From Dehalococcoidia bacterium (lineage in GTDB: Bacteria; Chloroflexota; Dehalococcoidia; Lucifugimonadales; UBA3495), in contig CBDCQN010000002.1 in the NCBI GenBank assembly GCA_965220625.1, positions 278,622 to 342,621 of the forward strand: 64,000 nt of DNA, read 5' to 3'. Shown here piece by piece: positions 6,301 to 8,923 of this stretch. A program made the position numbers and the translations under genes. Numbering within the stretch: the stretch's first letter is position 1; each line of letters starts with the position of its first letter. The notes beneath the pieces are model-generated. The model saw only the letters and a program-made list of their open reading frames with translations, was not told the origin of the DNA and searched no databases.

Positions 6301-7626
6301 TCAGGTTGGGAGTGGAATGGCTCGCAGCCGGGCCAGGGCGCGACTGAACTGGGTTTCCCAAGGCCAGCGCTGTGGCACATGCAGGGTGAGTCGGCGTGCC
6401 GAGCGGGTTAGCCGTCCGGCCAGGGCGAAGACCCGTCGTCTCAGGGTCTTGGTGGTGACGATCTGCTCACCCAGACCGATGCGGGCTGTCCAGCGGGCCA
6501 GGTTGTGGGCCATCGCCGGTACCGCGAGCCAGGCGGCGTTGGCGGCGAAACGTCCCGAGGGGAGATGGTTCAGCCCGACGCCGTACTTGAGGTCGCGTAT
6601 CGCGTTCTCGATCTCAGCGTGGCGGCGGTGGTCGGCCTCCAGTTCCAGGGTCTCTCCGTCCCGGTCGGTGATGAAGCCGTGATAGCTGTAGGTGGCGAAG
6701 AGGGCCAGTTGGGAACCGGGCGTCGGCTTGACCCTACGGACGATGAGCCGTACCGGCGAGGCGTCCGCCTCACTCTGGAACGGGGTGTAAGTCGTCTCGG
6801 CCACATCGGCGGGGCCGTCCATCCAGTAGGGAATGGGAGTCCAGTCCTCCTCTGGTATCGCCTCGATCAGGTCCCGCAGGCTGGCGCGCTGGCGAATGGT
6901 GATGGAGAAGCGGGCATCCATCCGGCGGCAGACGGCGACCACGGCGTGGGTATAGAAGCCGCTGTCGGCCCGCACCGTGAGTTGTCCCCTGGCCCCGCCG
7001 TAGCGAACCCGGCTCACCGTTTCACGCAGGAAGTGGGCGGCGCCCCGGGCGGTGTTGGCGCGGCCCTCGCGCAGCCGGGCCAGCAGCACGTCGCCGGTGC
7101 CGGCGGCGACGGCCAGCAGCGGGTGATAGCCACGGGCTCCGGTGTAGCCGTGGTGGCGCGCTCCCTCCTTGGCCATGCCGTAGGTCTCGCAGATGGTCGA
7201 GTCCAGGTCGATGGTCAGGGGCGAGTCACCGGGCCCGGCGCCGGCCTTCCAGGCCCGGGCCAGCAACTGGCGGCTCACCCGGTCGAGTTGACGGACGTGG
7301 CCCCACCTGAAGCTGCGCAGGAAGGTGCCCAGGGTGGATTGCGCCTTGACTGCGCAACCGATAGCGCAGGCCGTCGCACCAGCACGCAGCGCACCCGCGC
7401 CGTCGATGCAGTCGCCGCCCGCCAGCGCGGAAGCGATCAGCGTCAGCATCTTGTCCCCCGTGTTCGCCCGTCCCGGCGCGCCGATGAGGTCGAGGTGATG
7501 GTCAACGAGTTCGGGCAGGCCGAGATGCCGGGCCAAGGTGGCCGGAAGGAGCAGCCCGGCATTGGCCACCAGGCGGCGGTCGTCGAAGGTGATTTGGATC
7601 CGGTCGGGGTGGTGGCGTGGCAGCAT
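6301..7626 (-). CDS. IS1380-family DDE transposase, separated from its RBS by the IS110 insertion
   Basis: TIDLDST, GYHPLL, VRADSGFY and EIENAIRDLKYG motifs; ATG at 7626; RBS AGGAG now at 8814-8818. Confidence 0.9.
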   Translation of the reverse strand: MLPRHHPDRIQITFDDRRLVANAGLLLPATLARHLGLPELVDHHLDLIGAPGRANTGDKMLTLIASALAGGDCIDGAGALRAGATACAIGCAVKAQSTLGTFLRSFRWGHVRQLDRVSRQLLARAWKAGAGPGDSPLTIDLDSTICETYGMAKEGARHHGYTGARGYHPLLAVAAGTGDVLLARLREGRANTARGAAHFLRETVSRVRYGGARGQLTVRADSGFYTHAVVAVCRRMDARFSITIRQRASLRDLIEAIPEEDWTPIPYWMDGPADVAETTYTPFQSEADASPVRLIVRRVKPTPGSQLALFATYSYHGFITDRDGETLELEADHRRHAEIENAIRDLKYGVGLNHLPSGRFAANAAWLAVPAMAHNLARWTARIGLGEQIVTTKTLRRRVFALAGRLTRSARRLTLHVPQRWPWETQFSRALARLRAIPLPT

Positions 7627-7636
7627 CTTGTATCCT

Positions 7637-7815
7637 GACTTTGGCCTGCGACAATACCTCACCCGTGGTGGTCCGGAGCGCGGCAGACCGGTAGCATCTG
7701 GGTCATGGTAGACCGTCCAATAGCAAGGATCGCCCCATTCCCTAACGGTAGAACCCGGACAGTTGCCTGGGCCAATCGAGCCCGCATCGTGCAAGGAAGG
7801 GTCAACACTGAAACA
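7637..7815 (+). ncRNA. IS110 bridge RNA with target-binding and donor-binding loops
   Basis: GTAGCATCT (7691-7699) and CCAATAG (7717-7723) flank a GGTC/GACC hairpin; ACAGTTGC (7759-7766) and GTGCAAG (7789-7795) flank a GGGC/GCCC hairpin; these match the target and donor. Confidence 0.85.
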
Positions 7816-7825
7816 GGAGGTACAG

Positions 7826-8788
7826 ATGGGAGGAGAACCGAGGTTTGTAGGCATGATGTCTCAAAGGCACAGGTGGACGTTGCTGTCCGGCCTACGGGGA
7901 AGAGATGGACCCTGCCCTACGACCAGACCGGAATTGAGGGACTGATCCTCCAGATAGTGGACCTGGAGCCTTCCTTGGTGTTGTTGGAGGCTACGGGCGG
8001 CTTGGAGTTGCCCTTGGTGGCCGCCCTGGCCGGCTGCGGCGCTGCCTGTGGTGGTGGTCAACCCACGCCAGGTCAGGGACTTTGCCAGGGCCACCGGAAC
8101 GCTGGCCAAGACCGACGCTCTGGATGCGGGGGTCCTGGCCCATTTCGCCGACGTTGTCCGTCCTGACGTGCGTCCCCTCAAGGACGCCGAGACCCAGGTC
8201 CTCAACTCGCTGACTGCCCGCAGGCACCAGGTGATGACCATGCTGGTCTCCGAGAAGAACCGGCTGGGCACCGCCATCGGCGCCGTTAGTCCCCGCATTG
8301 AAGCCCACATCGCGTGGTTGGAACAAGACCTGAGCGACTTGGACAAGGGGCTACGTCAGACTTTGCGCCGGAGTCCCGTGTGGCGTGAGAAGGACGACCT
8401 GCTCCGCACGGTTCCCGGTGTCGGGGAGCAGCTCTCCCTCACTCTGCTAGCCAATCTGCCAGAGCTGGGCACGCTAAATCGCCGGCAGATCGCCGCCCTT
8501 GTGGGCGTGGCTCCCTACAACCGCGACAGCGGCACCCTGCGGGGCAAACGCGCCGTCTGGGGCGGACGCTCCCGGGAGCGGGCCGTCCTCTACATGGGAG
8601 CGTTGGTAGCCAGCCGCCACAACCCTGCTATCCGGGACTTTTACCAGAGGCTGTTGTCAGCTGGTAAACCGAAAAAGGTGGCGCTGGTCGCGTCCATGCG
8701 CAAACTGCTGGTTATACTCAACGGCATGCTCAAACATGGCTCCCCTTGGTGCAATATGACTCAGCCAGTCGTCGCTCATTCATGTTGA
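7826..8788 (+). pseudogene. IS110 recombinase with two frameshifts
   Basis: AGGAGG-ATG; G(I)DVSK, LEATGG, KTDALDA, RDSG and MRKLL motifs spread over three frames, with breaks near 7853 and 8030. Confidence 0.88.
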
Positions 8789-8923
8789 CTTTCAAGACAG
8801 TTGCTATTGGGTGCTCCTTTTCTGGGGTCGGTTTTTGTTGCAAAACCATTATCCCGGATTCAGAGGAGCACCTTCCTGCCGCCCCAGGACGCTAACCCGA
8901 CGCCCTCCTTCGGTGGATTCGGG

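Follow-up and report, generated by a model that had tools for sequence, protein, structure and literature searches.

A 64,000-nucleotide (nt) stretch of the Dehalococcoidia bacterium assembly GCA_965220625.1 (contig CBDCQN010000002.1, positions 278,622 to 342,621, forward strand; the whole stretch is called the window, and coordinates count from its first letter) carries an IS110-family insertion sequence (IS) at the very start of an IS1380-family transposase gene. The segment from 7629 to 8805 reads as a decayed natural element of the IS621 type, with a CT core and a bridge RNA whose target loop appears programmed for the start of IS1380 transposase genes, which would serve it as a selfish, multicopy landing site. 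We give this reading a probability of about 0.8. Its core, the identity as an IS110-family element with an IS621-type bridge RNA predicted to target the IS1380 start, is well supported by sequence comparison.

Removal of 7629–8805 in silico restores the continuous site GCAGCAT-CT-ATTGG, which on the minus strand reads AAGGAG-CACCCAAT-AG-ATG-CTG-CCA. A preliminary description of this DNA, made from the letters alone, had claimed that the deletion rebuilds the ribosome-binding site and start region of an IS1380 gene, and every sequence statement in that claim holds. The insert sits exactly between the Shine-Dalgarno sequence and the ATG of the IS1380 transposase gene, antisense to it, and has enlarged the distance between the two by 1177 bp. 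The displaced open reading frame (ORF) falls within the IS1380-type DDE transposases, matching the NF033539 equivalog model at 327.2 bits (cut-off 180) and PF13701 with an E-value of 9.6e-59. Its frame stays open upstream, across the antisense left end of the insert, to an ATG at 7854; this 517-amino-acid ORF (6301–7854, minus strand), which lacks an obvious ribosome-binding site, is probably a chance effect of high G+C.

The ends of the element are well defined. Its first bases are TGTATCCTGAC and its last bases AAGACAGTTGCT, and copies 94–97% identical to it in other genomes share these ends. A CT core precedes the left end TGTAT in all 18 listed copies, and the right end reads ACAGTTGC, with T in the adjoining flank, in 17 of them; the eighteenth, L002, has ACAGTTGT followed by C. 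Neither the window element nor the listed copies show a target duplication beyond the CT core or terminal inverted repeats.

The left end of the element has the layout of a bridge RNA. In the available parts of PMC11208160, the IS110 bridge RNA is described as a 5' stem-loop and, after it, two stem-loops with internal loops, a variable first one that reads the target and a conserved second one for reading the donor. The 5' sides of these loops pair with the bottom strand over 8–9 nt and the 3' sides with the top strand over 4–7 nt, and the core is part of all four guide pairings (PMC11208160, same parts). In the window copy, the left target guide (LTG) GTAGCATCT at 7691–7699 matches the left target in 8 of 9 positions, and the right target guide (RTG) CCAATAG at 7717–7723 matches in 7 of 7. 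The left donor guide (LDG) ACAGTTGC matches the right end in 8 of 8 positions, and the right donor guide (RDG) GTGCAAG pairs with CTTGTAT through two G·T wobbles; both fit the element's own joined ends, ACAGTTG-CT-TGTAT. Joining the ends also yields TTGACT-17-TATCCT, with a spacer of 17 nt. The guide placements around two hairpins and this putative junction promoter had been put forward in the preliminary description, and both were recovered. When the 197-nt left end was shuffled by mononucleotides, an 8/9 left match and an exact 7-mer were held together in 6 of 20,000 shuffles. The coordinates of these features are collected in Table 1.

Table 1. Positions of the IS110-family element, its parts and the IS1380-family element that it interrupts (window coordinates).
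Feature	Position	Strand	Remarks
IS110-family insertion sequence, 1177 bp	7629..8805	+	right CT core 8804–8805 counted in; left CT at 7627–7628
Left target and core, GCAGCAT-CT	7620..7628	+	minus strand: AG core, ATG (7626–7624), IS1380 transposase codons 2–3
Left end encoding the bridge RNA	7629..7825	+	-10 TATCCT at 7631–7636; predicted RNA from ~7643 to ~7810
Target-binding stem-loop	7676..7740	+	closing helix 7676–7689/7727–7740; LTG 7691–7699; inner hairpin 7701–7704/7711–7714; RTG 7717–7723
Donor-binding stem-loop	7753..7802	+	closing helix 7753–7756/7799–7802; LDG 7759–7766; inner hairpin 7768–7772/7780–7784; RDG 7789–7795
Recombinase pseudogene	7826..8788	+	Shine-Dalgarno sequence AGGAGG at 7815–7820; two frameshifts; ATG frame stops at 7943–7945
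Right end	8785..8805	+	-35 TTGACT at 8785–8790 overlaps the recombinase stop; left donor ACAGTTG at 8797–8803, then CT core
Right target and Shine-Dalgarno complement	8806..8819	+	ATTGG at 8806–8810, then CTCCTT at 8814–8819, on the minus strand AAGGAG, the IS1380 Shine-Dalgarno sequence
IS1380-family transposase ORF, 441 amino acids	6301..7626	-	intact; separated from its own Shine-Dalgarno sequence and 5' untranslated region
Interrupted IS1380 element, approximate extent	6123..8923	-	5' end near 8923; 3' end somewhere in 6123–6240

A comparison of 33 left ends gives the RNA its structure. In the consensus, the first stem-loop is closed by a helix of 13 pairs and contains an inner hairpin of 4 pairs, and its internal loop holds a variable 9-mer, the LTG, on the 5' side and a variable 7-mer, the RTG, on the 3' side. 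In the second stem-loop, a closing helix of 4 pairs and a hairpin of 5 pairs enclose donor guides that are conserved over the 33 sequences as ACAGTTGC and (G/T)TGCAAG. The 26 pairs of this alignment are formed in 98.6% of cells, against 32–44% in slid controls. Compensatory changes occur at three pairs, AU/GC (15 and 15 sequences), UA/CG (14 and 13) and GC/AU (22 and 10), two of which lie in the target-loop closing helix, and the covariation score was reached by none of 500 shuffles. A 5' stem-loop is suggested in the same alignment by eye only. The guide segments, whose folding into stems the preliminary description had named as a result that would speak against its proposal, form unpaired internal loops in this comparative structure.

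The guides vary together with the sites of insertion. Over 38 distinct insertions and 18 guide pairs, scored at 12 non-core positions, cognate guides match their flanks at 9.37 of 12 positions on average against 5.0 of 12 for non-cognate guides, and none of 10,000 permutations reached the observed total; 52 further loci from a wider scan show a like pattern. Guides GCATTCCCT/CCAGTAG accompany the site (C/T)ATCCC-CT-ACTGG, guides GTACCCCCT/CCGGTAG the site CTGCCCC-CT-ACCGG, and guides AATGCTCCT/TTCTATAG the site GATGCTC-CT-ATAGA. A shift of the RTG from CCAATAG to CCAGTAG is accompanied by a shift of the target from CTATTGG to CTACTGG. Other copies are found at guide-matching sites and not, as would have counted against the earlier proposal, at sites unrelated to their guides. 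The locus L077 (guides GTTTCTCCT/CCAGAAAG) was considered as an insertion at the Shine-Dalgarno sequence of an IS256 transposase gene and dropped, the ATG lying about 95 nt further on.

Insertion at the IS1380 start recurs across genomes. Copies of the window's subfamily stand at IS1380 codon 1 in 13 cases from 10 genomes, the window included, with at least 10 distinct flank contexts as counted by eye. The left end abuts residue 1 of the transposase in L061, L062, L063, L064, L065, L066, L090, L091 and L092, and likewise in L110, L112 and L113. Matches to the element occur in 53 of 101 related genomes (G000 included), in a search that scored only four candidates per genome, and a protein scan of a species-representative collection returned 508 relatives, from which 80 loci were kept, 71 of them labelled 'Dehalococcoidia'. 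The window's own genome holds this copy and one decayed relative, the 72% identical L002, on another contig. Two of the composites, L063 and L092, both in genome G032, are 99.8% identical over 1798 nt, and their similarity stops exactly at the IS1380 terminus; either the IS1380::IS110 composite was mobilised in one piece, or the element entered two identical IS1380 copies in separate events.

A sister subfamily, 83% identical and with guides GCATTCCCT/CCAGTAG, lies co-directionally inside the IS1380 transposase ORF, at the site ...CCCATCCC-CT-ACTGGATGG... in codons ~267–270 (PIPYWMDG). It is found at this internal site in other genomes at L068, L102, L104–L106, L109 and L122. Judged by their guides, two related bridge RNAs are predicted to be aimed at two sites of one IS family. 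Other subfamilies of the same IS110 lineage adjoin ordinary host genes.

Uninterrupted IS1380 copies carry the reconstructed 14-mer, whose absence from them would have counted against the preliminary description. The exact sequence occurs at two places in the window's own genome, both of them IS1380 ends; a search of the whole genome allowing up to two mismatches gave 40 hits against 47 in a reversed control, so that weight can be given only to those that lie at IS1380 ends with 0–1 mismatch. With the computed empty site as a BLAST query, 17 uninterrupted IS1380-type 5' ends spanning the junction were found in the same genome. Two have the occupied site, three read CCAATAGATGCTAC, and 12 are variants, one ending in ...GCTAT, one with CCAATTG and ten with an altered 4-nt spacer (CGAT, TTTT, CTTT, CAAC, TGTT). 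The block GGAGCACC is present in 15 of the 17 and GGAGCAC in all. The element thus occupies 1 of 18 IS1380-type 5' ends of its genome, and five good sites are empty. The LTG GTAGCATCT, earlier described as an 8/9, wobble-compatible match, does form one rU·dG wobble against the occupied variant; since three uninterrupted ends read CCAATAGATGCTAC, it is also a perfect match to a common site variant, the commoner ATGCTAC.

Public contigs X3, X15 and X16, all from relatives, show empty IS1380 sites that join 7626 to 8804; the share of sampled words present in any one public run was at most 0.35, and the four runs compared are contigs of relatives. The targeted IS1380 subgroup reaches tens of copies per genome in this Dehalococcoidia genus. 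In five genomes that carry the window's subfamily, a 24-nt site pattern (up to three mismatches) has 25, 42, 9, 59 and 29 matches, and the occupied start sites located in these genomes number 1 to 3 each, a few per cent.

The protein encoded by the element belongs to the same family as that of IS621. The window piece at 8048–8788 covers the C-terminal part of DEDD_Tnp_IS110 (PF01548, E 2.4e-11) and Transposase_20 (PF02371, E 1.8e-18), and with the model NF033542, 'IS110 family RNA-guided transposase' (cut-off 140), this 246-amino-acid piece reaches 156.7 bits and the intact relative L061 217.6 bits. Residues 4–307 of L061 match the transposases of IS621 (8wt6, E 5.8e-39) and ISCro4 (9t56, E 2.7e-40). 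The alignment with IS621 conserves the columns of D11, E60, D102, D105 and S241, within the motifs GID, EATG, KTDxxDA and SG; catalytic roles for these residues are given in the available parts of PMC11208158. An open 320-amino-acid recombinase frame from ATG is present in L061, L090, L064 and several of the 83% identical copies.

These features suggest a mechanism. In active relatives, excision would join the right and left ends and so create the sigma-70-type promoter TTGACT-17-TATCCT, from which a bridge RNA of ~170 nt would be transcribed across the left end. The first internal loop, with LTG GTAGCATCT and RTG CCAATAG, would read the target, and the second, with ACAGTTGC and GTGCAAG, would pair with the element's own joined ends, so that the DEDD/Ser recombinase could exchange strands at the CT core. 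With a putative joined-end promoter like that of IS621, the element reads as an ordinary bridge-RNA insertion sequence, its target loop being directed to where the transposase gene of an IS1380 subgroup begins. The programmed 14-nt site would comprise the spacer between Shine-Dalgarno sequence and ATG, the start codon and codons 2–3 of one such subgroup, and guides programmed in this way would account for an antisense landing between the IS1380 ribosome-binding site and ATG. The choice of target would then be the selfish use of a multicopy, harmless site, with inactivation of IS1380 as a by-product.

Several results weigh against this reading. A single-sequence minimum-free-energy fold of 7629–7830 lacks the two-loop structure and, with z +2.04, is not more stable than shuffles, and an Rfam 15 scan of 7400–9000 (E ≤ 10) found no bridge-RNA family and nothing significant, Rfam apparently lacking a family of this kind; its best match, sX15 on the minus strand with E 0.77, was treated as chance. 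The fold proposed as a check in the preliminary description thus gave no support on the single sequence; the two-loop structure comes from the 33-sequence comparison. Both nulls would suit an account in which the guides match by chance and protein–DNA recognition alone selects the site. That account is scarcely credible, given the rarity of the paired target match among shuffles, the permutation result across 18 guide pairs and the parallel change of RTG and target, and the 52 further loci contradict it as well. A circle junction was absent from the contigs of the four public runs, which come from relatives and, being contigs, cannot show transcription. Some of the 13 codon-1 copies may have been inherited and would then not be independent insertions.

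Three of the 16 located copies with the GTAGCATCT guide, L093, L094 and L067, lie away from the IS1380 start and also count against it. L093, in genome G032, sits in a gene for the R subunit of a type I restriction enzyme, at the near-cognate site CGGCAGCAT-CT-ATTCGG (left target 6/7, right target 4/5), and has the look of an off-target event in nature by which a defence gene was disrupted. L094, in genome G031, has the start-site guides GTAGCATCT/TCAATAG and is found where the sister subfamily inserts, inside the IS1380 gene (left target 2/7, right target 3/5); an off-target insertion, a half match or recombination may lie behind it. In L067 the right guide has diverged and the insertion is at another site.

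The decay of the window copy has also to be weighed. The preliminary description had called its recombinase frameshifted; a frameshift is indeed present, and there are two of them, not one. Against four close relatives the copy differs by exactly two indels. The loss of a T at 7853/7854, within the Ile codon that precedes the catalytic Asp11, puts Asp11 out of the ATG frame; an extra G at 8032 restores the frame. The catalytic codons are kept, with D11 to E60 lying within the frameshifted stretch. A C·C mismatch in the target-loop closing helix (7681/7735; alignment columns 53 and 107) is unique to this copy. The two frameshifts together with the broken stem pair make it probable that the window copy is dead; the recombinase is also broken in L062, L063, L092 and L093.

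Counting against decay, each of the frameshifts alters the length of a homopolymer (TT to T, G to GG), and could stem from an error of the consensus that affects repeats only. The copy would then be intact and active and its frameshifts artefacts of assembly, which is unlikely. The indels cancel each other in frame, related public-run contigs have the T at 7853 and one base fewer at 8032–8033, and repeats are hard to polish in metagenome assemblies. However, the contigs with an unbroken frame derive from relatives and not from the window's genome, and five good target sites of that genome are still empty. The rpoB (1262-amino-acid) and rpoC (1527-amino-acid) frames are open over ~8.4 kb, so the general indel error of the assembly is low. 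The C·C mismatch likewise speaks for real decay.

The presence of two sister subfamilies on one IS family is also compatible with antagonism. The element might be a dedicated IS1380 antagonist, maintained by its benefit to itself or to the host, from which IS1380 evolves escape variants; we consider this quite unlikely. In its favor, the insertion moves the Shine-Dalgarno sequence 1177 bp from the IS1380 ATG, and the sister subfamily enters the same transposase ORF at codons ~267–270. In the window's own genome, three further IS1380 copies (C1:385606, C3:2246317, C3:2524667) are broken at one ...GCGAGAC-CT site at transposase codon ~149, and two of these breaks have the end of an IS110-family gene from another lineage 177–181 nt away. 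Of the 59 IS1380 start-site matches in genome G016, 51 have the sequence CCAATTGATG, with a CA instead of a CT core, and of the cognate sites there only two are empty and one is occupied by the intact copy L064. The core T of IS621 is nearly invariant and a CA core is predicted to be refractory, according to the available parts of PMC11208158. The internal insertions, the breaks at codon ~149 and the CA cores are no more than suggestive.

Against antagonism stands the low occupancy, 1 to 3 start sites for 9 to 59 pattern matches in the five genomes and 1 of 18 5' ends with five good sites empty in the window's own. Other subfamilies of the lineage adjoin host genes, and a restriction enzyme gene is interrupted by one copy. 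The CA-core burst comes from a single genome and possibly reflects lineage history. Silencing of the IS1380 transposase by the insertion is itself a deduction from sequence that may not hold fully: read as its reverse complement, the left end brings an AGGA to 6 nt upstream of the IS1380 ATG, and this might stand in weakly for the lost ribosome-binding site, so translation may persist. A broader version of the conflict, in which sponge-associated Dehalococcoidia harbor IS110-type RNA-guided hyperparasites of IS1380, retargeted to the start and to codons ~267–270 and possibly in a third lineage to codon ~149, with escape through core variants, is likewise improbable.

The use of IS1380 starts as a safe harbour remains the preferred motive for the choice of target. 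It may be read from the same counts, 9 to 59 site matches against 1 to 3 occupied per genome in five genomes. Related elements target repetitive extragenic palindromic (REP), attC and Tn21 inverted-repeat sequences, according to the available parts of PMC11187229 and PMC11208160. Multicopy safe-harbour targeting of the kind known for these relatives suffices, and a silencing role is not needed to explain the data. From the earlier interpretation, the IS110 assignment, the IS621-type bridge RNA, the CT core, the predicted junction promoter and the targeting of IS1380, seen in 13 copies from 10 genomes, have been retained, and silencing as the function has not.

A comparison with known systems places the element close to IS621 of E. 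coli and to ISCro4. It shares with them a recombinase that, in an intact relative, aligns over its full length and keeps the five catalytic residues, as well as the CT core, the lack of terminal inverted repeats, a predicted sigma-70 promoter across the junction and a predicted left-end RNA with two internal-loop stem-loops and, as suggested by eye, a 5' stem-loop. In contrast to IS621, its target is the IS1380 transposase start and not the E. coli REP sequence, its host is an uncultured Dehalococcoidia lineage, its window copy is broken, and it is known here from sequence; its length is 1177 bp against 1277 bp for IS621 (the latter as given in the available parts of PMC11208160).

Like the elements that target Tn21 inverted repeats, it combines a DEDD transposase with a fixed target inside another mobile element. 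Those elements, cited in PMC11187229 and PMC11208160, differ in belonging to a sister family with the guide RNA downstream of the gene and with subterminal inverted repeats, and their target is a transposon end and not a transposase start codon. A conserved multicopy landing site is also used by ISPpu9/ISPpu10 and ISPa11 (REP) and by ISKpn4/ISPst6 (attC), according to the available parts of PMC11187229. REP and attC targets are non-coding host or integron repeats, whereas here the repeat is another insertion sequence, entered at a place critical for its function. For ISEc11 and ISXne4, the same parts of PMC11187229 document that close relatives have naturally changed target. A literature search found nothing on IS110 elements aimed at the IS1380 start, though the supplementary target tables of PMC11208160 may list such cases.

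The family adds natural bridge RNAs, comparatively well documented, from an uncultured phylum, with more than 18 guide pairs and their cognate sites and with some copies intact, and these natural guide pairs and intact copies are candidates for new programmable recombinases. They indicate that the place where translation of another transposon begins can be a target of IS110 elements. If the conflict reading were true, this would be an RNA-guided conflict between transposon families, one policing another and shaping the IS load; if it is false, the element is one more IS110 case of multicopy landing-site choice.

Other insertion sequences surround the element. An IS5-family transposase fragment at 8892–9260 on the minus strand (DUF4096; NF033580 at 107 bits, just short of the cut-off of 110) has a frame that extends into the IS1380 end near 8923, and the 33 nt outside that end have exact repeats at five other places in the genome. 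The fragment running into the IS1380 end and the repeats elsewhere make this locus a nest of three levels, with IS110 in IS1380 in IS5. The window also has two IS110 recombinase genes of other lineages, at ~18814–19983 (minus strand) and ~23714–24571 (plus strand), one with a full-length frame and one partial, and about 16 full-length IS110-family genes of other lineages are present genome-wide. The decayed relative L002 (C3:22176–23305, minus strand, in the window's own genome) has a similar GC-rich hairpin repeat on either side and adjoins an amine oxidase gene and a leucine-rich-repeat gene. Its left flank, GGGGCC-CT, fits its own LTG, but there is no such fit between its right flank and its RTG CCAAAAAG; one base is missing from its recombinase at the Gly-Ile-Asp codons, as in the window copy.

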